A DNA stretch of 61,021 nt, taken from positions 1 to 61,021 of IMG/VR virus record IMGVR_UViG_3300032309_000977. The stretch is one strand, 5' to 3'. Within the stretch, counting starts at the first letter, position 1. Every line of letters begins with the position of its first letter. Shown piece after piece: positions 12,175 through 58,521 of this stretch. Under the pieces are notes generated by a model. It had not been told where the DNA came from. It worked only from the letters and a program-made list of their open reading frames with translations, and made no database searches. The position numbers and the translations under genes are program-made. The DNA comes from a virus. Taxonomy: Duplodnaviria > Caudoviricetes.

Positions 12175-13001
12175 TGGGTATATCCGTTGGTAATAAAGGG
12201 TACACGTACACGTACACCACGATTAGAACTTTTCCCTATGGTGTAGGTAGTGGTGGAACATCATCTAACATAACTGTTGATGGTTTGTCGTATACGATGT
12301 TGACGTTTACCAGTACAGGAACTTTTACTGTTACAACTGCTGGGATTTTTGATTGCATGATTATGGGTGGGGGAGCATCAGGAAACGGACCTATTAACAC
12401 CAACGGTGGTGGAGGTGGCGGTGCAGGAGCAATCGTGATTTCTCAAGAAGCATACTTTGCTGTTGGGACATACGCTGTTGCCATTGGTGCTGGTGGTGGA
12501 AATATTTCCTATGTTGGAAAATATGCTAGTGGTCGTCCATTGGGTCCTAGTCAGGGTGGAAATGCAAACCTTGCGGCTGGTGCTCCAATTGTTAGTGGCT
12601 TTAGTGGTGGCAGTGGTATTGGCGCTGGACCAAATAACGGCTCTAACGGTGGCGGTGGTGGCGGTGGAATGGGCGGAGTAGGTGCAGTTCCATCACTAGA
12701 TAGGGGATACAACAACATGGTGAACGGCGGCAACGGTGGTGCAGGAATTGACTGGTCTGCATGGCGTGGTCAATCAGCAGGGACAACATTTTATGCCGCA
12801 GGTGGCGGTGGTGGAGGCGGTTACGGTTCAAGCATAACCGCCACAGGAGGAACAGGTGGTGGAGGTAGCGGAGCCAGGTATTATGGTGTTGCTGCAACCG
12901 CTGGAACAGCAAACACTGGAAGCGGTGGTGGCGGCGGTTCCGAAGCAGCAGGTGCTGCTCTTGGTGGTTCAGGTTTAGTATTAATTAGGTGGCAAGTATG
13001 A
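12174..13001 (+). CDS. glycine-rich fibre/adhesin protein
   Basis: Poly-Gly blocks; C-terminal ANTGSGGGGG...GGSGLVLIRW. Confidence 0.75.
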   Translation: MGISVGNKGYTYTYTTIRTFPYGVGSGGTSSNITVDGLSYTMLTFTSTGTFTVTTAGIFDCMIMGGGASGNGPINTNGGGGGGAGAIVISQEAYFAVGTYAVAIGAGGGNISYVGKYASGRPLGPSQGGNANLAAGAPIVSGFSGGSGIGAGPNNGSNGGGGGGGMGGVGAVPSLDRGYNNMVNGGNGGAGIDWSAWRGQSAGTTFYAAGGGGGGGYGSSITATGGTGGGGSGARYYGVAATAGTANTGSGGGGGSEAAGAALGGSGLVLIRWQV

Positions 13002-13816
13002 CAATATCTAATGCTCGTTCACCACGTCTTTTAACTCCTTATGGCGCTGCTGCGGGTGGAACACCTGTAACTATTAACGGTCTTAATTATCAGTATGTAG
13101 CAATAACGGCAACAGGTAGTTTTACGCCAACCACAGCAGGTTTATTTGATGTCTATATTTTTGGTGGCGGTGCAGCAGGTGGAACAGGAACCGACACAGT
13201 ATCGGTCGGTTCATCAGGTGGTGGTGGTGCAGGTGGAAGCCAACAAACAACTGTTTCTTTAGATGCGACTTCATACACCGTTACGATTGGTGCAGGTGGC
13301 GCAGCAGGTTTGTTTGGTAACTCAACAAAGTTGGGTTCAGTTCTTACTGCTGTTGGCGGCGGCCCAGGTTACGGAACTTTCCCAGGTGGAGAGCGTATTC
13401 CTGGTTTGGCTGGTGGTTGTGGCGGTGGTGGCGGTCGTGCGGCTGCTGGTGCAGGTACAGGTATGCAAGGTTTTGACGGCGCAGTAGGCACAGCACTAAA
13501 CGTAAACCATGCTGGCGGTGGTGGCGGTGCAGGTTCAGCAGGTAGCACAGGTTCAGGAACTACTGGCGGTGCAGGTGGCACAGGAGTTCAACTAAACACT
13601 TTTATCGGTGGCTCGTCTTTGTTCAAGGCTGGCGGTGGCGGTTCTGGTGGTTCTGGTACAGGTGGAACTGGCGGTTCAGGTGTTGGTGGCAACGGTGGAA
13701 CCTTGAACGGCACAGCAGCAGCAGCAAATACTGCTTCGGGTGGTGGTGGCGCATACAACGGCGGCACTGGCGGTGCTGGCGGTTCAGGTATTATTTATAT
13801 TAGGTGGAGGGTGTAA
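12998..13816 (+). CDS. glycine-rich fibre/adhesin protein
   Basis: Same architecture, ends GGSGIIYIRWRV; ATGA overlap with the upstream gene. Confidence 0.75.
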   Translation: MTISNARSPRLLTPYGAAAGGTPVTINGLNYQYVAITATGSFTPTTAGLFDVYIFGGGAAGGTGTDTVSVGSSGGGGAGGSQQTTVSLDATSYTVTIGAGGAAGLFGNSTKLGSVLTAVGGGPGYGTFPGGERIPGLAGGCGGGGGRAAAGAGTGMQGFDGAVGTALNVNHAGGGGGAGSAGSTGSGTTGGAGGTGVQLNTFIGGSSLFKAGGGGSGGSGTGGTGGSGVGGNGGTLNGTAAAANTASGGGGAYNGGTGGAGGSGIIYIRWRV

Positions 13817-14502
13817 TGCCATTTTCTTCAGTTTTAGGTGCAAGCACAGTAATAAAACCAGGTGTATGTACGTCTACGACTCGTCCTGCGTCACCATATG
13901 ACGGTCAGGTTATTTATGAGACTGACACGGACAGGACGTTGGTTTATAACGGAAATGGCTGGGTATTCCTATCTACGAGTAGGGCAAACCCTATAGGAAT
14001 TGACTTTATAGCATCTGGTTCTTTTACTTCGGTCAACTCCGTAAGTCTACCTAATAATACCTTTACCGCAACATACAGAAACTATATGTTGAATATAAAC
14101 TTAACTGCTAACTCATCAGACTCCAACCCTTTATGGTGGAGAGGTAGGGTTAGTGGTTCAGACAACTCAACATCAAACTATTTTTATGGTTTACGAGGAA
14201 CTAGGTTTTCTGATGGTTTGACTACATCTGGTGGTTTTGGAGCAAGTCAAACTGTTGGTATGTTAACTAGGTTGCAAAACCCATTTACAACTGGTTCAGT
14301 TACTGCTACATTTTTTGGACCTCAGTTAACGAGTAACACAACATATATTACACAAGCAACTGGTCGTGGCAACGGCGACCCTGATGCGGTATTGAATGGT
14401 GGAGGTTATTTTGGTGCATCCACATCGTTTGATTCATTAAGTTTTATTGCTAACGTTGGGACAATCTCTGGCACATACGAAGTTTATGGATATGCAATTT
14501 AG
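13816..14502 (+). CDS. fibre tip/receptor-binding-like protein
   Basis: N-terminal TSTTRPASP..GQ.I.ETDT motif shared with 15170..16240; ends ISGTYEVYGY. Confidence 0.6.
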   Translation: MPFSSVLGASTVIKPGVCTSTTRPASPYDGQVIYETDTDRTLVYNGNGWVFLSTSRANPIGIDFIASGSFTSVNSVSLPNNTFTATYRNYMLNINLTANSSDSNPLWWRGRVSGSDNSTSNYFYGLRGTRFSDGLTTSGGFGASQTVGMLTRLQNPFTTGSVTATFFGPQLTSNTTYITQATGRGNGDPDAVLNGGGYFGASTSFDSLSFIANVGTISGTYEVYGYAI

Positions 14503-14509
14503 GTAACCA

Positions 14510-14704
14510 ATGGCTGTAACATTTCCGTCTTCCCCAACACTTGGCGATCAATATACAATTGGTCAACGTGTTTATGAATACGATGGCTCTGCATGGTTTC
14601 TAATCAGTAACGTTGTACTCAGTAAGTATGTGATTGATGGGGGAGACCCTACAATCATTCAGTTCTATATTCAAATGGCTCCCGTAGACGGTGGTGGTGT
14701 GTAA
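14510..14704 (+). CDS. small structural protein
   Basis: FPSSPT.GD.Y......YDGSAW, DGG motifs. Confidence 0.6.
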   Translation: MAVTFPSSPTLGDQYTIGQRVYEYDGSAWFLISNVVLSKYVIDGGDPTIIQFYIQMAPVDGGGV

Positions 14705-14726
14705 TGGCTGCAAATAGTCAGTGCGG

Positions 14727-14732
14727 TATAAT
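14727..14732 (+). promoter_or_regulatory. putative -10 (TATAAT)
   Basis: Consensus hexamer in an intergenic gap; AGGAG RBS before 14790. Confidence 0.45.
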
Positions 14733-14789
14733 TACAGGAACAATTGTATAAACTGCGTCTGGCAGTATTACTTTCTAGGAGAAACTTAA

Positions 14790-15170
14790 ATGGCACATTT
14801 TGCAGAACTTGGCGAAGACAATGTTGTATTGCGAGTCATTGTTGTATCTAACGATGATTGTAAAGACTCAGAGGGCACCGAATCAGAAGCCGTAGGCGCT
14901 GAATTCTGTCGCAATCTTTTGGGTGGTACATGGAAACAGACCTCATACAACGGCAACATGCGTGCTCGTTATGCAGGTATTGGTTACACATACCGATCAG
15001 ACTTGAACGCATTTATTGCTCCAAAGCCTTACCCATCATGGTCACTTGATACAGAAACCACTGAATGGGAAGCCCCAGTTGCCCGTCCTAACGTGGCTCG
15101 CCCACATGAAGCATCTTACGTATGGAACGAAACAACACAAACTTGGGATGAAGTAGAACTTCCTGCCTAA
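14790..15170 (+). CDS. MAHFAEL-type protein, partner of Gly-rich fibres
   Basis: MAHFAEL...WKQTSYN...YAGIG...F..PKPYPSW, a recurrent aquatic-phage family. Confidence 0.7.
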   Translation: MAHFAELGEDNVVLRVIVVSNDDCKDSEGTESEAVGAEFCRNLLGGTWKQTSYNGNMRARYAGIGYTYRSDLNAFIAPKPYPSWSLDTETTEWEAPVARPNVARPHEASYVWNETTQTWDEVELPA

Positions 15171-16240
15171 TGGACCCACTTGACTTTGAACTAAAGTTTG
15201 TAGAGAACAAGGATAAATATAACCTTGGTGCTGTAACAGACGGTTCAATCACCACGGCAAAACTAGCCGATGGTGCGGTGACTACTGCAAAGATTGCGGC
15301 TGGTGCTGGTGGTATGGCTGTAGTTACGTCTACTACTAGACCAGCGTCACCAACAGTTGGTCAGATGATTTTTGAAACTGATACGAATTATGTTCGTGTA
15401 TATACCGCAGCAGGCTGGTCTGTTGGTATGCGTCAAAGTGCCTCGTTTGTAGTGACCTACCTTGTAGTTGGCGGTGGCGGTGGCGGTGGAAACACAATGG
15501 GTGGAGGTGGTGGTGCTGGTGGTTATTTAACAAGTACAGCAACACTTACATCTGGGACTACATATACCGTAACAGTTGGTGCAGGTGGCACTGGAACACC
15601 AAATAGAAACGTGGCGGGAGGACTGGGCGGAAACTCCATTATTCAAGGTGTTGTAACAGCACTTGGAGGTGGAGGTGGTGGAAGTTGGGGAGTTGGTTCA
15701 GCAGGGCAAACTGGTGGTAGCGGTGGTGGTGCCTGTCAAGGAAGTTATTACAGTGGTACGTCACCAGGTGGTGCAGGTACTGCTGGTCAAGGCTTCGCAG
15801 GAGCAAACTCAACTGCCTACAACACATATCACCGTGGAGGTGGAGGTGGTGGTGCCGCAGAAGCAGGAAATACAGATGCCGCCAGTGAAGGTGGAGATGG
15901 TCTAACAAGCACTATTACAGGTGTTTCTACTACATATGCTGGTGGTGGTGGTGGCGGTAGCATGGGAGCAGCAGCAGCGGGTGGAGCAGGCGGTGGTGGT
16001 GCAAGTACAGGTAACGCAACTCTTGCAACTGCTGGTACCACAAACACTGGAGGTGGCGGCGGTGGAGGTGGCTACAACGGTGGGGACGGTCAAGGAGCCG
16101 CTGGAGGTTCTGGAATTGTCGTAATCCGATATGCAACCGCTGATGGGGTTGGTAAAACAATTAGTGGTGGTACAAAAACCACAGATGGAACAGATACAAT
16201 CCATACATTTACAACATCTGGTTCTCTTTCAATTGCATAA
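15170..16240 (+). CDS. glycine-rich fibre/adhesin protein
   Basis: YLVVGGGGGGG, GGSGIVVIRY, TIHTFTTSG. Confidence 0.75.
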   Translation: MDPLDFELKFVENKDKYNLGAVTDGSITTAKLADGAVTTAKIAAGAGGMAVVTSTTRPASPTVGQMIFETDTNYVRVYTAAGWSVGMRQSASFVVTYLVVGGGGGGGNTMGGGGGAGGYLTSTATLTSGTTYTVTVGAGGTGTPNRNVAGGLGGNSIIQGVVTALGGGGGGSWGVGSAGQTGGSGGGACQGSYYSGTSPGGAGTAGQGFAGANSTAYNTYHRGGGGGGAAEAGNTDAASEGGDGLTSTITGVSTTYAGGGGGGSMGAAAAGGAGGGGASTGNATLATAGTTNTGGGGGGGGYNGGDGQGAAGGSGIVVIRYATADGVGKTISGGTKTTDGTDTIHTFTTSGSLSIA

Positions 16241-21827: not shown

Positions 21828-22507
21828 TGGCTGTAGACCCACGTTTGTTTAGCCGTCAACACGGTTTACGCCCTGTATATGCAGCAGAAGGCTCTAACTT
21901 TATTGGTATTGAAGGCAAAAATTTAAGACCTCATGAATTAGGCAATTTAAGGCACAACATTAAGACGATTGCTCAAATGGCTACTCCAGAACAAGTGCAG
22001 GCTGGAGATGAATGGTACGACATAGCGCAAGACGAGGCTGACAGACTATCTCCACGTGATTTAAATATGGGTGCTGGAATTATTGCTGCTGCAAGTCCTC
22101 AAAAAGAATGGACTAATAACTTAGAAATTGCAAAAAGAGTTATGAAAAGTGGAGACATCAGAGGATTAACTGGTCAAAATGCTATAAAAGCATTAAGAAT
22201 TCGCAGTGGAGAAAATCCAGAGGATGTGCTTCCTATGCGAATTAAGACTGGTCAGTTTTATCACAATATTAAAGACCCAAATAATCCACATTTTTTAACT
22301 GTAGATACACATGCTCACAACATTGCAGTTGGTCATGTATATAACAAAGAAGACCTTGGACTTGATTCTTACGGGCGATATGACACTGTTAAAAACGCAT
22401 ATATGCACGTAGCAAATCAACTAGGAATAACTAATCCTAACCGACTTCAGGCTCGTACATGGGTTACATGGAAAGGGCTTGACCGACCTAAAAGGACCTA
22501 TAGATGA
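21827..22507 (+). CDS. DUF7178-like helical protein (possible glycosylase-like fold)
   Basis: WY...GIIAAASPQ..W..N, K...FY.NI, TVD.HA, LQA.TW. Confidence 0.55.
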   Translation: MAVDPRLFSRQHGLRPVYAAEGSNFIGIEGKNLRPHELGNLRHNIKTIAQMATPEQVQAGDEWYDIAQDEADRLSPRDLNMGAGIIAAASPQKEWTNNLEIAKRVMKSGDIRGLTGQNAIKALRIRSGENPEDVLPMRIKTGQFYHNIKDPNNPHFLTVDTHAHNIAVGHVYNKEDLGLDSYGRYDTVKNAYMHVANQLGITNPNRLQARTWVTWKGLDRPKRTYR

Positions 22508-22722: not shown

Positions 22723-22967
22723 AACAACTTCAAAATATTCTATTACGAATTCTTGCAACTTTTGCAGCGTCTGGTTTAGGTGTAATTGGTGCAGGAGCCA
22801 TCGCTGGCGTTCCTTTGTGGAAAGCCATGTTTATGGCTGGTATTGCTGGGGTCGCATTTGTAGTAGAAGGTTTGTCTAGGGCATTCCTTGACGATGGTAA
22901 ACTTAGTCTTGACGAAATCAACGCCGTGTTCAACAAAGTTGACGGGAAGGATAAAGAAGAAAAATGA
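22719..22967 (+). CDS. putative holin
   Basis: Two TM segments, charged C-terminus, directly upstream of the endolysin. Confidence 0.6.
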   Translation: MKQLQNILLRILATFAASGLGVIGAGAIAGVPLWKAMFMAGIAGVAFVVEGLSRAFLDDGKLSLDEINAVFNKVDGKDKEEK

Positions 22968-32656: not shown

Positions 32657-33189
32657 TGGATGTTCGCACTGAATTAGGTTTAATCCAAAAGCGTTATCGG
32701 GAGTACGCCCGTCACGTTGGTGAATCTATTATTTGGTATGAATTCTTGCCACTTGGTGCAGCCAGTGCGGGTTCAAAGTTTGATGACGTCTACGACGAAG
32801 GCGTTTATGGAACAGGTGGGCGTAAGTACAAAACGGGAGTTGTTATCCCAGTCCTAATGATTACCGAAACTGAAGACCAAAAGCGTTCTATTCCTGAAGG
32901 TCGTCAACCTGTAGAAGTAACTAACTTTGTGGCATCCGTAGAAGAATTTCGTTCCGCAGGCGTTTCAGAACCATGGGAATATCGCAGACACTTGAACGAC
33001 ATGTTTTTATACGATGGAAGATACTTTACAGTAACTTCCTATAAGATTCGTGGTAGGGCTAAAGACGACATTGTGGTTGTGATTGAAGGTCTAGAAGTCT
33101 ACTATCAGCAAGAATTTGTATTTGACCCAAACATGACATTTAATTCTATTTATAACCTTCCTTGGCCTTCCAGCCTTCCTAATCTTTGA
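32656..33189 (+). CDS. head closure/stopper protein
   Basis: Synteny; D.F.YDGRYF.V beta motif. Confidence 0.55.
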   Translation: MDVRTELGLIQKRYREYARHVGESIIWYEFLPLGAASAGSKFDDVYDEGVYGTGGRKYKTGVVIPVLMITETEDQKRSIPEGRQPVEVTNFVASVEEFRSAGVSEPWEYRRHLNDMFLYDGRYFTVTSYKIRGRAKDDIVVVIEGLEVYYQQEFVFDPNMTFNSIYNLPWPSSLPNL

Positions 33190-33248
33190 TAAACTTCATA
33201 TAACCTTGATGAGCGTCAAGGGGTCACTTGCCTAGAGTTTGGAGCGTT

Positions 33249-36632: not shown

Positions 36633-37427
36633 ATGAGTAAATCAATAGCGTCTGATGCCGAAGCAGTAAATCAAGCAATTCAAGACCCCGCACCTCAAAT
36701 TGCAAGCCCTAAAAGTTTGCAAGTTGAGTTGTTGCGGGGATTCTTTGATGGAACTGAGTGGCAAACCAGTGCGTCAGTTAAAGAACTAACTGGAGTAGAT
36801 GAAGAAGCACTTGCGGCTTTTGATATTCGCAATGGAGTTTCATATTCAGAATATATGACCCATTTGCTTAAACGTTCAGTGGTAGACATTGGTGCTACCC
36901 GTGTTGAGGACAACCCAGCAATACTAGATAATCTTATTATCGGTGACCGTGACGTTTTGTTCCTAGGAACACTAAAAGCAACATATGGTCGTTACCGTGA
37001 GTTTGAATTGATTTGTCGGGAATGTGAAGGACACAACGACATTAAGATTGACCTTGAAGATGATTTTAAAGTAGACGAATCATCGGAAGATTTAAGGGTG
37101 CCTTTATCTGCAACGCTTCGTGACGGTACAGTTATCCAATTAAATTACCCTACTGGGGCAGACAGTCAATACGTATCTAAGAAGGCTAAAACAACGGCTG
37201 AACAAAACACATTAATGCTTGCTCGTTGTGCAGTACTCCCAGGAATGGACCGACCTCAAGCAGAGGTGTGGGCAAAGAATCTCAATCTGGCTGACCGTAA
37301 CAAGTTGGTTAAGACGCTTCTTTCTGCACAGCCAGGACCTCGTATGGAGGAGGTGGAGACCCAATGCGCCCACTGTAATGCTAAACTTGTTCTAGCCTTA
37401 GATTGGGTCTCCCTTTTATTTGGCTAA
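36633..37427 (+). CDS. tail/baseplate assembly chaperone with two CxxC motifs
   Basis: ELTG.DEE, GDRD, CREC, CAHC; between tube and tape measure. Confidence 0.75.
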   Translation: MSKSIASDAEAVNQAIQDPAPQIASPKSLQVELLRGFFDGTEWQTSASVKELTGVDEEALAAFDIRNGVSYSEYMTHLLKRSVVDIGATRVEDNPAILDNLIIGDRDVLFLGTLKATYGRYREFELICRECEGHNDIKIDLEDDFKVDESSEDLRVPLSATLRDGTVIQLNYPTGADSQYVSKKAKTTAEQNTLMLARCAVLPGMDRPQAEVWAKNLNLADRNKLVKTLLSAQPGPRMEEVETQCAHCNAKLVLALDWVSLLFG

Positions 37428-37571: not shown

Positions 37572-40322
37572 ATGGCAGAAGATTCCCTATTAGGTTTAGG
37601 CGCAGGAACACCCCCAGGTGGGGCATCTAGCGCTGTAGGTAGTTCTACTGTTAACTCACGCCTAAACGTTGATTTAAAAATTCTAAAAGGTCTTAATGAT
37701 GAACTTAAGACCATGGGTACAACTGCCAAAAGCATTGAAAAGAACTTTGATTCTTTAATCAAAAAGACTAAAGAACTTACTAAAGAACTTCAAGCCGCTG
37801 GTAAGGCTGGACGAAATCTAAACGGAAACACGTCTAACTCATACATTCCTAAAAACGGCATGCCTCCAGCAGCCGATTTGCACTCACTGCAAAAACAACA
37901 ACTAGGAATGTTCCAGCAATTCCAAGGTAGCCAAATTGCTATGGCTCAATCCCTTATGGGTGGAGCAGGCGGTATGGGAGGCGGTGGGGGCGGTGCTGGT
38001 GGCCCATGGGCAATGGTTGCCCAAAAGATTGTAGACGGTATACAAAAAGCAGGAGCAATGATTGATGCACGGGTTGACCGTGGTCGTCAGTATGCACTTC
38101 CAGCAGACCGTTTATCTGTACTACTACAGCAACAGAATGGTATCTCACAAAACCAGGTGATGAACCAAATGCGTATGCCATTGACCAATTACAGGTTGGG
38201 CGCTGATGGTATTAATGAATTGCTTGCACTGCAATCACGCACTGGATTAAAAGCAAATGCTCAAATGGGCGCTGCAACAGAAGCACTAAGAACAGTTAGT
38301 GGTTACGGTTATAGCACTGCTGATATTGCCAATATGACTGAATCTATGGCTGGCCCTAACACGGCTAACCGCATGTTCATGATGATGGGCACTGGTATCT
38401 ATGGCATTGGCGGTAAGCAAAAAGACCCAATGCAAGTTATTAAAGATACTGTAAATCGTTTAGGACTTACTAGTAAAGACATCGTTGACAGCGGCTTGCA
38501 AAAAGGTTCAGTTGCTCGTCAAAAATTAGAGATGGCTGGGTTTGATGAAAACATGCAAACCATGGTTCTCCAATACGCCCAGTCTAACCTTAATTATCGG
38601 GACAAAGGTGGGAAGGGTATGTATGACCCTTCTAAAAAGGCTGACCGTGAGCGCATGGGGATTGAAAATAACTATGCAACTCAAGTTGAAGAAACACAAC
38701 GTGTAGAAGGAAAACGTGAGGAAAACTTCTATAAGCGTCAGGCTGATAATTTTTCACAGTTAGAAAAGAACATGCAAAAAGTTACCAAACTATTTGGTGA
38801 ACTTGAAGATTCTCTTTCTACAATTATTGGAGCAAAAACAAGTACTCGTGGCTTTGGAAAGATATTTAATACCCTTGGTGATTTAGGTATTCCAGGAATG
38901 AACTCTCTTGGAAACTTCATTGGTGACCCTGCTGGAGCGAGTGCCGAGACTTCACGAATTGCTAGTACTAAACCTACATCTGCTCCTAAGTATGGTGCAA
39001 TGTTAGAAAAACTTAAACCACAAATGCGTGAGCCTTTGGAAAGAATGCTTAAAGATGCTGGTGGTCGTGTAGGTATTGGGCAAACTTATCGCAGCGCAGA
39101 TGACCAAAAAAAGATGTTCTTAGAACGGTATTACAAAACCGATAAGAAAACAGGAACATTTTGGAATGGTTCATACTGGGAAAAGAAGCCAGGAGTTGCA
39201 GCAGCCACTCCTCCAGGAATGTCTATGCACGAAATTGGACTTGCAGCAGACCTTACTGGTGACCTTGAGTGGGTTAAAAAGAATGCTGGTCGTTATGGTT
39301 TGGAGTCATTTGATTTCATGGGAGAACCATGGCACATTCAACTAAAGGGTATACCAAGGAGTCGTAGTCAGTATGAAAAGGCTGGCGCACCTTTGGGAAC
39401 CAATAACAGCGGAGACACTGCTTACAGCCCAACTACTACTGGAACTACTAAAGAAGTTGGACCATATGGTCAAACATCTGTTACGGGTGGAGCAAGTAAT
39501 GAGATTGGACTGCGAGCAAACTCCATGGGTGCAATGTCTATGGGAGCAGCAATGGCTACCTTTGCTTCCAGCAGAATTGTTTATGGAGAAAATGGAAATA
39601 CTTCAGTAGGTTCTGCTGGTGGTTCTGGAGCAACGGTATCGGCTCAAAGTGCTGCTGGTGTTGTTGGTAATAACGTAAAGGCAACTGATGAAGCAGGGTT
39701 ACGTTCATACTATGGAAATTTGTATAAAAACCTAAGCCGAAACAATATTGGTAAGGAAGGTGTACGAAGTCTATTAAGTGGTTTAACTGTAAGAGGAAGA
39801 CGACTTACTCCAGAAGAAATTAATGGATTTGTACAGATTGCAGGACGTGAGTCTGGATATAACTCCAACGCATACAATCCAACAGTAAGAACTGATGATA
39901 TTTCTTTTGGATTGTTCCAATTAAATATGGACCCTAGCGCTGGTGGAACAGACGCTTTTAGGAAGTTTCCATGGCTTAAAGGAAACTACGACAAACTTTG
40001 GGACCCAAAAACTAACGTAGACGTTGCTGCTGGTTGGAAAATGGCAGATGGCGTAGGTCGTGGAAATATCTTTTACCATTGGGGTGGTACTCCTGAAAAC
40101 CCTATGGCAGGTAGTGCTGGGTACAAACAAGGTGACCCTGCGTATCCATCTTCTCCTGGTCCACTTCCCCGTAGTGGTGGTAGTACTAATGTTATTACTG
40201 TTGCTCCCGTAATCCATATCAACACAACTGGAAGCACCAGTATGGATATTAACCAAATGGCTAAGGAAGTTTCGCATATGCTTGAAAAAGAAATTCACTT
40301 AACAATGATGAGGGCTAAGTAA
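37572..40322 (+). CDS. tape measure protein with M15 peptidase and lytic-transglycosylase-like domains
   Basis: Helical N-half; PGMSMHEIGLAAD/EPWH; RESGYNSNA...SFGLFQLN. Confidence 0.85.
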   Translation: MAEDSLLGLGAGTPPGGASSAVGSSTVNSRLNVDLKILKGLNDELKTMGTTAKSIEKNFDSLIKKTKELTKELQAAGKAGRNLNGNTSNSYIPKNGMPPAADLHSLQKQQLGMFQQFQGSQIAMAQSLMGGAGGMGGGGGGAGGPWAMVAQKIVDGIQKAGAMIDARVDRGRQYALPADRLSVLLQQQNGISQNQVMNQMRMPLTNYRLGADGINELLALQSRTGLKANAQMGAATEALRTVSGYGYSTADIANMTESMAGPNTANRMFMMMGTGIYGIGGKQKDPMQVIKDTVNRLGLTSKDIVDSGLQKGSVARQKLEMAGFDENMQTMVLQYAQSNLNYRDKGGKGMYDPSKKADRERMGIENNYATQVEETQRVEGKREENFYKRQADNFSQLEKNMQKVTKLFGELEDSLSTIIGAKTSTRGFGKIFNTLGDLGIPGMNSLGNFIGDPAGASAETSRIASTKPTSAPKYGAMLEKLKPQMREPLERMLKDAGGRVGIGQTYRSADDQKKMFLERYYKTDKKTGTFWNGSYWEKKPGVAAATPPGMSMHEIGLAADLTGDLEWVKKNAGRYGLESFDFMGEPWHIQLKGIPRSRSQYEKAGAPLGTNNSGDTAYSPTTTGTTKEVGPYGQTSVTGGASNEIGLRANSMGAMSMGAAMATFASSRIVYGENGNTSVGSAGGSGATVSAQSAAGVVGNNVKATDEAGLRSYYGNLYKNLSRNNIGKEGVRSLLSGLTVRGRRLTPEEINGFVQIAGRESGYNSNAYNPTVRTDDISFGLFQLNMDPSAGGTDAFRKFPWLKGNYDKLWDPKTNVDVAAGWKMADGVGRGNIFYHWGGTPENPMAGSAGYKQGDPAYPSSPGPLPRSGGSTNVITVAPVIHINTTGSTSMDINQMAKEVSHMLEKEIHLTMMRAK

Positions 40323-48222: not shown

Positions 48223-48930
48223 ATGAAGGACAAATACCTCATCGCAGGTACAGGAAACGCTAAGAAAAATGTCATTGAGGACGGTTTGGCAGATGTCATT
48301 TCGTCACGTGATGTCACATTCTTACTAAGTGCAAGGCGTGGTGCGTCAGAGGGAGAGAAGCGTGTTTACGATTATCTGCTTGACCACAATGCAAAGTTTT
48401 ACCTTATTGGTAACGCAGAAGTTCCAACTGTATTAGAGAAAGCAGCGCTTGGAAAGATTGATGTGATTGCTGAATCACCTGAGTCTCTTGAAGTTCTTTA
48501 CTTGTGGGACGAAACCGATGAAGAAACATCCGAAGAAGATGTCGCACGTTGGTGCGAAGGTGGATATGTAGTTAAAGACTTGACACAAGGTCTTACTCCA
48601 TTGCGTCTTGCTGATGCAATTGAACCAGTAGATACTGCAACAAAAACAGATGAAGAACTACAACCGTTTACTAAAGCGGAACTTAGCAGTATGGCTATTG
48701 GTGTTTTACGCAAACAAGCAGAAGCACAAGGTATTCAACACAAGGCATTAACGAAAGAAGAACTAGTGGAAAAGTTATTAGGTGAAGAACCTGTAGTTAA
48801 GTCAAGCACTCGCCCTACGCAAGAGATTGAAGAAGGCGTAATGATTGTTGTTGTATTCCCTAACGGAACAGTTGTGTCCACTCCAGGAACAATGGCAGAA
48901 GCACGTGTGTTACTTGGAATGACTAACTAA
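48223..48930 (+). CDS. hypothetical protein, possible Rho-N/HEH-like C-terminal motif
   Basis: ELSSM....LRKQA...GI....LTKEELV..L. Confidence 0.55.
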   Translation: MKDKYLIAGTGNAKKNVIEDGLADVISSRDVTFLLSARRGASEGEKRVYDYLLDHNAKFYLIGNAEVPTVLEKAALGKIDVIAESPESLEVLYLWDETDEETSEEDVARWCEGGYVVKDLTQGLTPLRLADAIEPVDTATKTDEELQPFTKAELSSMAIGVLRKQAEAQGIQHKALTKEELVEKLLGEEPVVKSSTRPTQEIEEGVMIVVVFPNGTVVSTPGTMAEARVLLGMTN

Positions 48931-49011
48931 ACGAGGGGGGTCGGAGGAGGAAGAAAGGAGGTAAAAAGCCTCCTCCAACCCACACCCTCAAGGCATGAGG
49001 ACAGGCATGCC
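48927..49011 (-). ncRNA. candidate two-hairpin small RNA with anti-Shine-Dalgarno loops
   Basis: Minus strand: GGCAUG-ccuguccu-CAUGCC; GAGGG(ugu)GGGUUGGAGGAGG-cuuuuuACCUCCUUUCUu-CCUCCUCCGACCCCCCUC-guuu; extended -10 located 7 nt upstream. Confidence 0.55.
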
Positions 49012-49018
49012 AGAACAA

Positions 49019-49027
49019 AGTGTAGCA
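49019..49027 (-). promoter_or_regulatory. extended -10 promoter TGC-TACACT (minus strand)
   Basis: TGn-TANNNT ending 7 nt before the first base of hairpin 1. Confidence 0.5.
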
Positions 49028-49054
49028 CGCAACAATCAGACTGAGGATAGGCAT

Positions 49055-49573
49055 ATGACAAAAAAATCAAGCAAGTTTGGTGGACCCTTTTTACCGTTCC
49101 CTAGGTGGGCACTTGAGTACCTACAGGGTGACGATGTTGGAATTGTAGTTTTAGTAACAATTCTGCAATACATGGATTCTGATACTCAGGAGTTAACTAC
49201 TTCGTACCAGTGGATTGGGAAGTTGATTAAACGGGATAGGCGCACAGTTATCCGTGCCATGAACCGTCTGGTTTCTATTGGGGTCATTTATCGGACCCCT
49301 AGGGTTGGAAAGAAAGGGAGCCTTTCCAATCGCTACTTGGTCAACTTTAATAATCCAAATGTGAATAAAGAAATGACATCTAAGAAGACCCCAGTGTCAC
49401 GGGTGACACCCCCCCTAGTGTCACTGGAGACACTACCTAGTGACACGGGTGACACTCCCCCCAGTGTCACGGGTGACACCCAATCAAGAATAACCAATAA
49501 CAAGAATAACTCTTTCAAGAAGGGAACCGAAGGGATTGACCCTCGTTTAAAGAGGAAAAAGGATAATGGCTAA
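49055..49573 (+). CDS. HTH replication initiator (lambda O-like)
   Basis: wHTH (SYQWIG......RRTVIRAMNRL...G.I...R...SNRY); internal iterons; GAGG before ATG 49055. Confidence 0.8.
   Translation: MTKKSSKFGGPFLPFPRWALEYLQGDDVGIVVLVTILQYMDSDTQELTTSYQWIGKLIKRDRRTVIRAMNRLVSIGVIYRTPRVGKKGSLSNRYLVNFNNPNVNKEMTSKKTPVSRVTPPLVSLETLPSDTGDTPPSVTGDTQSRITNNKNNSFKKGTEGIDPRLKRKKDNG
49393..49479. repeat. four 17-bp palindromic iterons (putative replication origin)
   Basis: AGTGTCACGGGTGACAC-like units at 49393, 49417, 49439 and 49463, followed by an A-rich tract. Confidence 0.85.
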
Positions 49574-50155: not shown

Positions 50156-50795
50156 GTGGAAAAGCGCAAAGTATTGGAAGAACCGTCCAGTAGCAGAACG
50201 TCTAGACAACTTAAAGATTCCTCGTAGGTACAAAAACACCACTATGGATACATACAATCCAAAGATTGGTGATAATAATGCTTACGAAGCACTTCTTACT
50301 TGGAAACAAGAAGCACTTACGCACATCTCCGAAGGCATGGGTCTTTTTATTTATGGAGATTCAGGAGTAGGTAAAACTCACCTTGCCCAAGCCTTGCTTA
50401 AAGACCTTGTTACTGAACACACATTGAGCGGAATGTTTATCCCAACAACAACTTACATTGAGATGATGTATGACGAAATCCGCAATGATGGGGAATTGCC
50501 AGAAGAATACGCAGACCAAAACGTGGCTAAATACCTTCGCCGTATTTACGATGTTGTCGTACTGGATTCACTAGGTGAAGAACATGACAGTGACTTTACA
50601 AAGCGCTCATTGATGTCATTCTTAGAGAACCGATACAATTGTAAATTGACAACCATTATTACTTCTAACCTAAGTCCAATGCGTATCAAGTCTCGTTACG
50701 GTGAACGCTTCCATTCAATTTTACACGACTGCTGTATGTCTATTCCAGTTCTTGGGGACAACCAAAGGATTACACAAGACTATGCAGGGCAATGA
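50148..50795 (+). CDS. DnaC/IstB-like helicase loader ATPase
   Basis: GDSGVGKTHLA, VVVLDSLG.E, RY....TIITSN. Confidence 0.88.
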   Translation: MSEWKSAKYWKNRPVAERLDNLKIPRRYKNTTMDTYNPKIGDNNAYEALLTWKQEALTHISEGMGLFIYGDSGVGKTHLAQALLKDLVTEHTLSGMFIPTTTYIEMMYDEIRNDGELPEEYADQNVAKYLRRIYDVVVLDSLGEEHDSDFTKRSLMSFLENRYNCKLTTIITSNLSPMRIKSRYGERFHSILHDCCMSIPVLGDNQRITQDYAGQ

Positions 50796-51225
50796 CCTAC
50801 TAGATTTTTCATCTGTTACGCAAGGCGTGATTTTTGAAGGAGTCTTAGCAATACCACCAACTAATACAGTTGCTTCAACAAAGGCTGCATTTTTTAAGAA
50901 CCGTGAAAATTGGTCAGCGTATTTGCGTCTGTGGGAACCAAATGAGTTACCACTTAAAGCAATGATAGATAGTGCAACACGCTTAGGTGTTGGTACAGAT
51001 GTGTACACTTTTGTCTCACAAGGTTTTGCAGAAGAAGTAGATAAATGGTTGATGCGTAAAGGAATCTCAGTCGCAGTCCTGTACTATGGCTCCGTTGAAG
51101 AACTCGCATATGATTTACGGTTTCAACGACAAATTAGGACAATATACACAGCAACAGAGGAACAGGCATCCGTAATCGGAATCCGTTCTCATGTTGTTGA
51201 CCCAAAGAAAGCATGGATTTCATAA
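50782..51225 (+). CDS. hypothetical protein (possibly degenerate HAD-like)
   Basis: ATG 50782; VIFEGVLA. Confidence 0.55.
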   Translation: MQGNDLLDFSSVTQGVIFEGVLAIPPTNTVASTKAAFFKNRENWSAYLRLWEPNELPLKAMIDSATRLGVGTDVYTFVSQGFAEEVDKWLMRKGISVAVLYYGSVEELAYDLRFQRQIRTIYTATEEQASVIGIRSHVVDPKKAWIS

Positions 51226-56466: not shown

Positions 56467-58521
56467 ATGACTACCTTGGACATCGTTACTACCCTTGACC
56501 AGTTACATACGCTGGTCAAGGTAGTACAAGACGCAGGAGCATTTGCTTTTGACATTGAAAGCCGTGCCGTATTAGAACGACATCCTGACCTTCAAAAGAT
56601 TATGGAGGATGAGTTCAAAAAGAAAGCCCTTAGCCTTAAGAGCAAGTCTCCTGACGTGCTGGAGAACTCTCGTAGGGTCATTGAGGAAGACTATAAAAAG
56701 GACATCGCAGTCAACCCACTTCGTAATGAGGTGTTTTGGATTGCTATAGCCACCTTTGGTCATTCTTGGGCTATCCCTATGGGTCACAAGTTAGGTACTC
56801 TCCTAGAGCCAGAGGAAGTCGGAGATGGCTCTACAGTGCCTCCAGAGGGCTATAGGAAGCGTTTAAAGAGCGGTGAGGAGTCCATGGCTAAGGCTCGCTA
56901 TATCAAGCCAGCCGTCTACGGAGAGCCTCCTAAACAGTTGAGCCGTTCTGAGGTCTTTGAGGCGCTTCGCCCCATATTCTTTAGTGACCTAGTAAAGGTT
57001 GGGCACAACGTAAAGTTTGACGCTCGGTCAATCAGTAAGTACTACGACCAGATACCACCTGGACCGTACTTGGACACAATGGTTCTTCAGCACATTGTTT
57101 CAGAGAACCTGATGAGTTACTCATTGGAAAAGGTTATTGCTCACAACTATGACGGACTAGAAGCCTACGCAAAAGGTGGAAAGTTGGGTAAGTTGATTAC
57201 CCAAGTACCTATAGAAGACGCAACAACTTATGTACACCGTGACGCTCGTTGGACATGGATGTTGTATCAGCGACTACACAAGCAGATTATTACTAAGCCT
57301 GACTTGTTATCTGCACTTCAATTAGACAGTGAGGTGCTTGAAGTTATTATGCACATGGAGAACAACGGTATTCCAGTAGATGTTAAGGACTTAAAGAACC
57401 TCAACCTAGAGTTAGACCAAGAACTTCGTGACATCCTATTTAAAATCTTTGAGCATGCTCCAGCAGGGTTTAATCCTGACTCCAATAAAAGTAAGCAGGA
57501 GTTTTTATTTAACCCTAAAAAAGAAGGTGGGCTAGGTCTAAAGCCATATAAGAAAACAGATAAGGGTGCACCGTCTGTAGACGAAGAATCGCTTCGCAAT
57601 CTACAGTCAAAGCACCCAATCATTCCATTGCTTTTAGAGTGGGCTGAAATGAAGAAGTTGAAGTCAACCTATGTTGATGGACTTCTGCCTAAGATGTACA
57701 AGAATAGGTTGCACCCCTCATTCCACCTACACCGTACAGCAACAGGTCGGTTGTCTTCATCTGACCCAAACCTTCAGAACATTCCCCGTGAATCCAGCAT
57801 TCGTAAACTGTTTGTTGCTCCACAGCACCACCAGTTGTTCGTGGCTGACTACGACCAAATTGAGTTGCGTATCATGGCAATGTTTAGCCAAGACCCACAA
57901 TTAGTTCGCATTTTTAACACTGGAGAAGACATTCACACGGCTACTGCGTCTGCGGTGTTTAAGAAAGACCCAAAAGATGTTACGTCTGAGGAACGCCAGA
58001 TTGGTAAGGGTGTTAACTTCCTTACAGCCTACGGTGGGGGTGCTGCAAAGTTGGCACGTACTACAGGTATTGAGGAGGAACATGCTATGGAAATCCTTAA
58101 CAATTACTATAAAAGTTTTGCTGGTCTGACTGCATGGAAGCAATCTGTGGTTGCTACTGGTCGCAAAAACGGCTATGTATCAACCCTTGAGGGTAGGCGT
58201 AGGCGGTTACCTGACTTGACTTCCAGCGATAATATGCTCCGTTCTAGGGCAGAACGCCAAGCCGTCAATGCTGTAATTCAAGGAAGTGCGGCAGACATCT
58301 GTAAAAAAGCCATGATTAATGTACACAAGGCTTTACATAACAAAGGCGTGCGCCTCTTAGTACAGGTTCATGACGAACTGATAGCCGCAGTTCCTGACAA
58401 AATTGTAGAAGAATCCACACAGCCCTTCTTAGAAGCCATGGGAGATGGTACGGTTATCCAGCAGATACCTCTAAAGGTGTCTTATGAATACGCAAGCAAC
58501 TGGGCTGAGGCTAAGGGATGA
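56467..58521 (+). CDS. polA: DNA polymerase family A with 3'-5' exonuclease
   Basis: FDIE, HNVKFD, TGRLSSSDPNLQNIP, DYDQIELR, KGVNF..AYG, QVHDEL. Confidence 0.95.
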   Translation: MTTLDIVTTLDQLHTLVKVVQDAGAFAFDIESRAVLERHPDLQKIMEDEFKKKALSLKSKSPDVLENSRRVIEEDYKKDIAVNPLRNEVFWIAIATFGHSWAIPMGHKLGTLLEPEEVGDGSTVPPEGYRKRLKSGEESMAKARYIKPAVYGEPPKQLSRSEVFEALRPIFFSDLVKVGHNVKFDARSISKYYDQIPPGPYLDTMVLQHIVSENLMSYSLEKVIAHNYDGLEAYAKGGKLGKLITQVPIEDATTYVHRDARWTWMLYQRLHKQIITKPDLLSALQLDSEVLEVIMHMENNGIPVDVKDLKNLNLELDQELRDILFKIFEHAPAGFNPDSNKSKQEFLFNPKKEGGLGLKPYKKTDKGAPSVDEESLRNLQSKHPIIPLLLEWAEMKKLKSTYVDGLLPKMYKNRLHPSFHLHRTATGRLSSSDPNLQNIPRESSIRKLFVAPQHHQLFVADYDQIELRIMAMFSQDPQLVRIFNTGEDIHTATASAVFKKDPKDVTSEERQIGKGVNFLTAYGGGAAKLARTTGIEEEHAMEILNNYYKSFAGLTAWKQSVVATGRKNGYVSTLEGRRRRLPDLTSSDNMLRSRAERQAVNAVIQGSAADICKKAMINVHKALHNKGVRLLVQVHDELIAAVPDKIVEESTQPFLEAMGDGTVIQQIPLKVSYEYASNWAEAKG

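Follow-up and report, generated by a model that had tools for sequence, protein, structure and literature searches.

A conserved, structured minus-strand RNA element beside the replication initiator gene of freshwater phages, most likely a countertranscript-like small RNA

The viral contig IMGVR_UViG_3300032309_000977 (61,021 nucleotides (nt); hereafter the window, meaning the whole stretch of DNA that was analysed) carries a minus-strand element in the 124-nt gap dividing its tail module from its replication module. The element consists of an extended -10 promoter motif, a short hairpin (H1) and a long GC-rich hairpin (H3) (Table 1). The first-pass annotation had proposed here a phage small RNA (sRNA) displaying a mimic of the 3' tail of 16S ribosomal RNA (rRNA), and the sequence features that it listed were all found in place by direct reading. 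The existence of a conserved structured RNA element on the minus strand is well supported. It is most likely an sRNA repressing the adjoining initiator gene in the manner of the phage lambda oop RNA or of a countertranscript. A free sRNA of ~87 nt in this phage, repressing the initiator through H1, is the best explanation and is given about an even chance. The element appears to represent an undescribed RNA family, without Rfam match.

Relatives were collected with two successive queries, the initiator protein and a five-sequence alignment of it, which yielded 62 loci in viral contigs with initiator identities from 99% down to ~40%. The group in which conservation is seen is a large set of freshwater phages of roughly 90-97 kilobases (kb). 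A recognisable homolog of the element lies just upstream of the initiator in most of these contigs and in most of their 47 unique upstream regions. In the window, the minus strand folds at -43.5 kcal/mol, compared with -28.1 +/- 2.9 kcal/mol for 200 shuffled sequences, none of which was as good (z -5.3). The plus strand folds at -41.9 kcal/mol (z -3.3). Folding of both strands, which had been suggested as a check, therefore beats the shuffles on either strand and recovers H1 and H3. With a covariance model (R1) built from ten sequences of two clades, A and B, H3 was recovered at E<=1 in 49 of 64 sources on the minus strand, next to four weak echoes on the plus strand. The 36 R1 matches at E<=0.05, 17 distinct rows, make up alignment A5, which is fitted to the model. 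Standard pairs occupy 96.2% of the H3 cells in A5, against 77.7% in shuffles and 49-58% when the 3' partner is slid. Both sides have changed at 12 of the 19 H3 pairs and none of 500 shuffles reaches any of five measures, so that the stem covariation on which the first-pass annotation had proposed to judge the element is present. RNAalifold also recovers H3 on a plain MAFFT alignment of nine sequences, which was not fitted to the structure. The H1 stems vary between clades, and the pentamer UGUCC within the loop is invariant in clades A and B. Since the MAFFT alignment puts H1 one column off register between clades, the H1 pairs were counted sequence by sequence. Among isolated phages, no near-DNA match to the window and no match to the initiator protein were found, and R1 had no match in the syntenic Streptomyces phage LuckySocke.

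The relatives also indicate which strand is read. G-U pairs fill 34 cells of A5 on the minus strand (at 11 of the 19 pairs) and three on the plus strand (at two pairs). When each strand of the whole element, from the predicted 5' end to the end of H3, was folded separately, the minus strand was more stable in all 35 unique elements, whose folds contain 158 G-U pairs on the minus strand versus 54 on the plus strand. For H3 alone, the minus strand was more stable in 20 of 30 unique hairpins. The ten exceptions all come from one large clade, referred to below as the leftward-gene clade, whose H1 contains two to four G-U pairs on the minus strand and whose whole element still prefers the minus strand. 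The first-pass annotation had based the same preference on a single stem position of the window, the pair 48942/48977, which is G-U on the minus strand and C-A on the plus strand; the relatives extend it to the element as a whole.

A promoter motif is conserved on the same strand. The minus-strand sequence TGnTAnnnT, recognised as an extended -10 in the first annotation, occurs no further than ~110 nt from the initiator start in 46 of the 47 unique upstream regions. In alignment A6 (nine sequences of clades A and B), the -10 bases T, G, T, A, A, C and T are invariant while their neighbours vary. The equivalent hexamer on the plus strand lacks the final T in most clades. H1 begins 7 nt downstream of the minus-strand -10 in the window and 5-8 nt past it in every clade inspected, as expected for a transcript start. 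The start of H1 is thus the predicted 5' end of the RNA, and transcription would begin at about 49011-49012. The -10 motif of this predicted promoter lies 27 nt before the initiator start, and no canonical plus-strand promoter was seen between the minus-strand -10 and the initiator start codon. The exact sequence TGNTANACT occurs at four sites in the window, with 12.2 expected, and the copy in the element is the sole one on the minus strand. The others (22895-22903, 33187-33195 and 37379-37387) are all on the plus strand at or near gene ends, a pattern as if the extended -10 were the usual promoter type of the phage and were avoided elsewhere. A contig from a freshwater metatranscriptome (X18) spans 49024-49252, beginning just inside the minus-strand -10 and extending into the initiator gene; since RNA starts cannot be read from contigs, its first base is only a hint of where the initiator mRNA may begin.

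The strand evidence bears directly on an alternative in which the functional molecule is the plus strand. The plus strand at 48952-48962 reads AGAAAGGAGGT, without ATG, GTG or TTG at normal spacing. An unlikely alternative is that, in the leader of the initiator and replication-gene mRNA, the hairpin displays the perfect Shine-Dalgarno (SD) sequence GAAAGGAGGU without start codon and binds the 30S subunit, either as a stabiliser of the STAB-SD type or as a standby or decoy site. The window holds a single copy of the SD-like 9-mer GAAAGGAGG, and four of five near-complete relatives likewise have one copy per genome, in the element only; the motif is conserved without a start codon at usable spacing. 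Given the lack of a canonical plus-strand promoter between the minus-strand -10 and the start codon, the element may well be transcribed as part of the initiator mRNA. Presumably, the STAB-SD sequence itself is the same 9-mer. There is precedent in STAB-SD of Bacillus thuringiensis cry3A, an SD-like sequence that base-pairs with the 3' end of 16S rRNA without initiating translation and that blocks RNase J1 (passage in PMC4113751), and in a polypurine stabiliser of mycobacteria (passage in PMC2358910). STAB-SD is the closest plus-strand analogue of the element, sharing an SD-like sequence without start codon. It acts, however, on the mRNA strand near the 5' end, whereas here a hairpin loop holds the motif and the strand evidence favours the other strand. 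Where the minus strand has G-U the plus strand has A-C, the promoter motif is conserved only in its minus-strand reading, and GGAGG is missing from the loop in several clades. The decoy or attenuator offered as a second option by the first-pass annotation thus runs against both the G-U bias and the fold stability. A small open reading frame (ORF) led by the SD-like motif was rejected, no start codon following the motif.

The minus-strand sRNA would have a partner close by. A segment formed by the H1 loop and flanking stem bases (49008-48996) is complementary to the ribosome-binding site (RBS) of the initiator, with which it forms a duplex of 13 base pairs (bp) containing one G-U pair (-21.9 kcal/mol). 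Within the plus-strand RNA of the entire window, no other non-self site for the H1 segment scores as well; the next reaches -19.1 kcal/mol and the background lies at -7.3 +/- 3.0 kcal/mol. At the DNA level the match is a direct repeat of the 12-mer GAGGAYAGGCAT, present in exactly two copies, 46 bp apart in the window, where 0.19 were expected with one mismatch allowed. In the window and in locus L015, where the repeat copies differ, the RNA-RNA duplex retains a wobble pair. In L016 an exact 11-nt repeat is shared by the H1 loop and the initiator leader. In the leftward-gene clade a small hairpin with CCUCCUCAGG faces CCUGAGGAG at the initiator RBS, in L051, L061 and L003 the leader is matched by the H3 loop, and in clades A and B most leaders hold GGACA-like words (for the loop UGUCC). 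Over 21 representatives, the loop-to-leader duplex averaged -11.8 kcal/mol for cognate and -9.2 kcal/mol for non-cognate combinations (permutation p ~5e-5). This gives support rather than proof: the representatives are related, which makes the p optimistic, and six of them show only a weak effect. The cognate leader ranked first or second for 11 of the 21 RNAs, and the cognate advantage was strong in the window, L016, L019, the leftward-gene clade, L051 and L061.

The same repeats could be read as protein sites. On this DNA-level explanation, which seems improbable, GAGGAYAGGCAT and the GGACA-type repeats of the relatives would be iterons or operators for the initiator or another helix-turn-helix protein, at an origin or an autoregulated promoter, and the RNA structure would be secondary. 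The direct repeats do flank the promoter just upstream of the initiator gene, GGACA occurs three times in L017, the L016 repeat is exact, and a co-evolving DNA-binding protein would equally give co-variation of the two copies. Sites bound as double-stranded DNA would nevertheless have no need for what is seen around them: one copy always lies in the loop of a hairpin with covarying stems and strand-specific G-U pairs. Moreover, the distance between the copies is not constant (46 bp in the window, 33 bp in L016) and in some clades the matching copy is in H3 or in another hairpin.

The preferred explanation, control of the initiator by a minus-strand sRNA, can be formulated as follows. The interval 49027-48925 would be a small-RNA gene, whose extended -10 would start an RNA of ~87 nt at about 49011, with H1 first, the long GC-rich H3 and a weakly U-rich tail last, and pyrimidine-rich sequences in both loops. 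This RNA would pair without chaperone with purine-rich ribosome-binding regions, its main target being the adjoining, divergently placed initiator mRNA. Pairing of H1 over 13 bp, from the SD through the base before the AUG (49042-49054), would block 30S binding so that less initiator is made. The outcome would be a negative control of replication timing or copy number. Convergence of transcription from the minus-strand promoter with rightward transcription may add to the effect, as for lambda pO and pR, and the 16S-tail-like loop of H3 may act as a second conserved seed. If the initiator is indeed repressed in this way, lytic-looking phages of uncultured freshwater hosts would use a plasmid-style RNA control of replication. 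The element would also provide an RNA-RNA pair that is compact and testable, with natural compensatory variants across clades.

Table 1. Features of the minus-strand element and of the flanking genes in the window
Feature	Position	Strand	Basis or remark
Extended -10 promoter TGCTACACT (TGnTAnnnT)	49019..49027	-	direct reading
Hairpin H1, 6 bp: GGCAUG / loop CCUGUCCU / CAUGCC	48992..49011	-	folds
Segment AUGCCUGUCCUCA: H1 loop and flanking stem bases	48996..49008	-	complementary to initiator RBS
Hairpin H3, 18 bp: 5-bp outer helix, 3-nt bulge, 13-bp inner helix	48933..48989	-	folds, covariance
H3 loop, 18 nt, CUUUUUACCUCCUUUCUU	48951-48968	-	direct reading
H3 loop core ACCUCCUUUCU	48952..48962	-	identical to last 11 nt of 16S tail GAUCACCUCCUUUCU
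Tail GUUUAGUU after H3: possible 3' end, weak U-tract	48925..48932	-	overlaps TAA 48928-48930
Predicted target UGAGGAUAGGCAU: initiator RBS including SD GAGGA, ending one base before AUG 49055	49042..49054	+	complementarity
235-amino-acid gene without family match, final gene of tail module	48223..48930	+	stop codon abuts H3; convergent to the minus-strand element
Replication initiator, 172 amino acids, O-like/DnaD-like, helix-turn-helix	49055..49573	+	PHROGs, Pfam

Several observations weigh against this reading. The window taken alone is nearly neutral on strand (-39.9 kcal/mol on the minus versus -39.6 kcal/mol on the plus strand), so that the strand call rests on the relatives, and one conserved basal position of H3 in the leftward-gene clade is A-C on the minus and G-U on the plus strand. 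In that same large clade the element precedes a leftward gene, which implies a 5' leader there and not a free sRNA. The cognate advantage is weak in L018, L020, L050, L053, L060 and L063, and the match between loop and leader, being also a direct DNA repeat beside the initiator gene, is predicted equally well by a DNA-binding model. A partner for the H3 loop was sought in the window, 19 loci and two complete relatives, and no recurring target emerged. The U-tract past H3 is weak or absent in many relatives and the U content of the tails varies, which makes the 3' end of the RNA uncertain. Finally, contigs from RNA libraries (X16, X18, X19 and X20, at low depth) leave 48931-49023 uncovered; as contigs give neither strand nor ends, they do not test transcription either way.

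In L027-L048, L053-L058 and L060-L063, the element is followed on the minus strand by genes for small, very basic proteins. They comprise a family of 53-55 amino acids (MASKKEVWDKP...) without Pfam match, DUF6496 and DUF6321 proteins; two that were scanned had no family match, and the others were one DUF6496 and one DUF6321. The start codons of these genes are not preceded by an SD sequence, so that in the basic-protein clades the element would be a long structured 5' leader.

By position, the closest known system is lambda oop; by mode of action, it is the 6C sRNA. Lambda oop is a leftward RNA whose 5' end lies at 38,675, 11 nt upstream of the O start at 38,686, and which ends in a hairpin (passage in PMC5869508). 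The activity of its promoter pO modulates lambda rightward transcription and replication (passage in PMC3985674). Similarly, the element would give a short leftward RNA with its predicted 5' end just upstream of the initiator, here with a gap of ~44 nt. As in lambda, the RNA would run into a terminal hairpin opposite the 3' end of the rightward gene that lies upstream, and a leftward promoter motif, predicted here from the conserved TGnTAnnnT, stands right upstream of the initiator. The Rfam scans gave no match linking the element to oop. The two differ in their targets. Oop overlaps cII by 52 nt and is a true cis-antisense RNA, whereas H3 ends 2 nt past the stop codon of the 235-amino-acid gene, only the tail overlaps that stop and the last codon, and the predicted target is the initiator RBS, reached in trans through a hairpin loop. 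Such a contact is familiar from plasmid countertranscripts (pLS1 RNAII, R1 CopA, ColIb-P9 Inc RNA), from P1/P7 c4 and from P4 CI, which are small structured RNAs beside a replication or control gene whose loops contact the leader or RBS and lower translation; c4 RNA is processed from the same transcript as its target. Plasmid countertranscripts overlap the leader of their target. In the window, in contrast, the RNA gene and the target site are separated by the promoter. Pairing would therefore be in trans, except with an initiator mRNA that begins upstream of the element.

The actinobacterial 6C sRNA, of ~90 nt, has C-rich loops that bind G-rich mRNA sites without chaperones, with dnaB among its targets (passage in PMC6486639). 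The element displays pyrimidine-rich loops on hairpins, CCCC-rich in the L003, L050 and L061 clades, and its pairing is predicted. Unlike 6C, it is phage-encoded, and in the clade of the window the loops are CCUCC and UGUCC rather than runs of C. A search of Rfam over the whole window returned no match at the gathering score. At E<=10, the region 48800-49150 gave six matches, all to sub-threshold microRNA hairpins; RF01066, the 6C family, was not among them. No Rfam family thus accounts for the element.

The H3 loop is the feature that had first drawn attention to the locus. Read on the plus strand, it is GAAAGGAGG(T/G) in several clades: the window with L002, L015-L026, L017/18/20, L028, L049 and one large clade formed by L027-L048 with L054. 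Clades A and B, L028, L049 and the leftward-gene clade retain the corresponding CCUCCUUUC on stems that differ. Elsewhere, H3 carries the pyrimidine-rich loops UUUCCCCUUCUUU, UUCCCCCUUUC, UUGCCCUUCUUG or UUUUUCCUUCUUUGU, and the purine-rich plus-strand variants include AAGAAGGGGAAA and GAAAGGGGGAA. Four unique regions (L053, L057, L058 and L063) lack the loop motif, and the upstream region of L055 is too short to contain it. Loops are pyrimidine-rich in all clades; runs of at least four C are found only in some (L003, L050, L060 and L061). The expectation that the loop would be conserved among relatives is therefore borne out for several clades, but the exact 16S-like loop is not universal. 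The identity with the 16S tail extends to 12 nt (CACCUCCUUUCU) in L017 and L018. The first-pass annotation assigned this tail to Actinobacteria and Firmicutes. Listeria and Streptococcus have been reported to carry it, as have, at genome level, many other lineages (PMC6288834), which supports Firmicutes and adds several other phyla; Actinobacteria are not among the lineages in the Table 1 passage of that source.

On the reading of the first-pass annotation, the H3 loop would mimic the 16S 3' tail in trans and could occlude strong SDs on many host or phage mRNAs, shifting translation towards weak-SD or leaderless genes. The loop agrees with the 16S tail over 11 or 12 nt, it is kept in several clades, and the phage avoids the full motif, AAGGAGG occurring once in the 61 kb where 6.6 were expected. 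The genes of the phage use shorter SDs of the TAAGGAG or AGGAG type, and these too would pair with the loop. Other clades have non-CCUCC loops, and a titration of SDs genome-wide would demand a very high abundance of the RNA. Mimicry is also not needed to account for the resemblance, since any RNA selected to pair with an SD-like site comes to resemble the 16S tail, and identity alone is thus no proof of it. With a loop that is not universal, no convincing phage target, and the initiator RBS as the clearest predicted target through H1, such a global anti-SD role stays speculative and improbable. A related proposal, of low probability, is that H1 separately throttles the initiator while the H3 loop is a true 16S-tail mimic on an abundant phage RNA, competing with ribosomes for strong SDs or acting as a decoy that draws off a 16S-tail-recognising host factor or defence nuclease. 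A conserved loop identical to the 16S tail is unusual in any case. If it has a function of its own, a virus would here be acting on host translation in a new way; if it is a mimic, the phage would be reprogramming that translation. Full-text searches turned up no report of a phage anti-SD sRNA.

The conservation of the loop is equally relevant to an explanation without any base-pairing function, in which H3 would stop leftward transcripts, shield the late genes from antisense transcription or stabilise the 3' end of the late mRNA. The GC-rich stem abuts the stop of the last late gene, the minus-strand tail is partly U-rich in the window, L017, L018, L020, L060 and L062, and a canonical terminator occupies the equivalent junction of the syntenic Streptomyces phage. 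In spite of its GC-rich stem, H3 departs from an intrinsic terminator by its 18-nt loop, by a tail with five U in eight and by the conservation of the loop across clades; a terminator scan of the window did not call the site, the loop being longer than 8 nt. The plus strand has no U-tract. The first-pass annotation expected an ordinary terminator to keep its stems and not its loop. The opposite was seen: loops of 15-19 nt are kept as the stems change, which makes a passive terminator loop unlikely. In the leftward-gene clade, furthermore, H3 sits within a multibranch leader with a gene downstream, and termination would leave H1 and its complementarity to the initiator leader unexplained. A role as mere transcription stop or insulator is improbable. 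In LuckySocke, the canonical terminator at the junction between tail and early genes (L073 1585-1725, that is 57084-57224) is flanked by runs of A and T. About 70 nt beyond it, the plus strand reads TGCTACAGT, of the same extended -10 type.

The gene setting agrees with the junction of virion and replication modules recognised in the first annotation. The contig has an estimated completeness of 64% and nearly every long ORF lies on the plus strand. The tail module, also on the plus strand, includes a baseplate-J gene and closes with the 235-amino-acid gene. The initiator matches the replication initiation O-like and DnaD-like families of PHROGs (E ~1e-11), and its Pfam match to HTH_36 falls under the cutoff of that family. 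It is followed by genes for a DnaC-like loader, DnaB, a primase and an SNF2 helicase. Two ATGs (48995 and 49007) share the reading frame of the initiator; the duplicated GAGGA site precedes the latter. An N-terminal extension or small ORF starting at these ATGs was discarded: they are not conserved, and in L002 a TAA interrupts the frame before the initiator start. Concerning the host, no prophage-based assignment could be made because no initiator relative was found in bacterial genomes, and the window contains no detectable WhiB domain. The portal and DnaB are 52-53% and 32-33% identical, respectively, to those of the BRock/LuckySocke group of Streptomyces phages, and an actinobacterial host is suggested as plausible from sequence similarity. 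The contig is present in many lake and freshwater metagenome runs.

Individual partners of the H3 loop were considered and set aside as unproven. The RBS of the gene after the initiator ranked among the top matches in some loci, and inspection revealed no consistent match. One good site was seen in the relative G002, at ~50606-50860 (oriented), where the region upstream of a 75-amino-acid gene, CAGAAAGGACGTGGCGAGA, equals the plus-strand H3 loop of G002 at 16 of 19 positions. The ortholog in G003 (~21870-22150, oriented; 47% identity) shares only AGAAAGGA, and an ortholog is absent from the window, whose best non-self matches to the H3 loop are glycine-rich coding repeats. Several plus-strand ORFs at 12400-16100 contain many GGTGGAGG and GGAGGTGG repeats, which are glycine-rich and collagen-like and make up the bulk of the spurious pairing matches to the CCUCC loop. 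Both GC content (0.51) and skew (0.24) are raised at 12-14 kb, in the region of these repeats.

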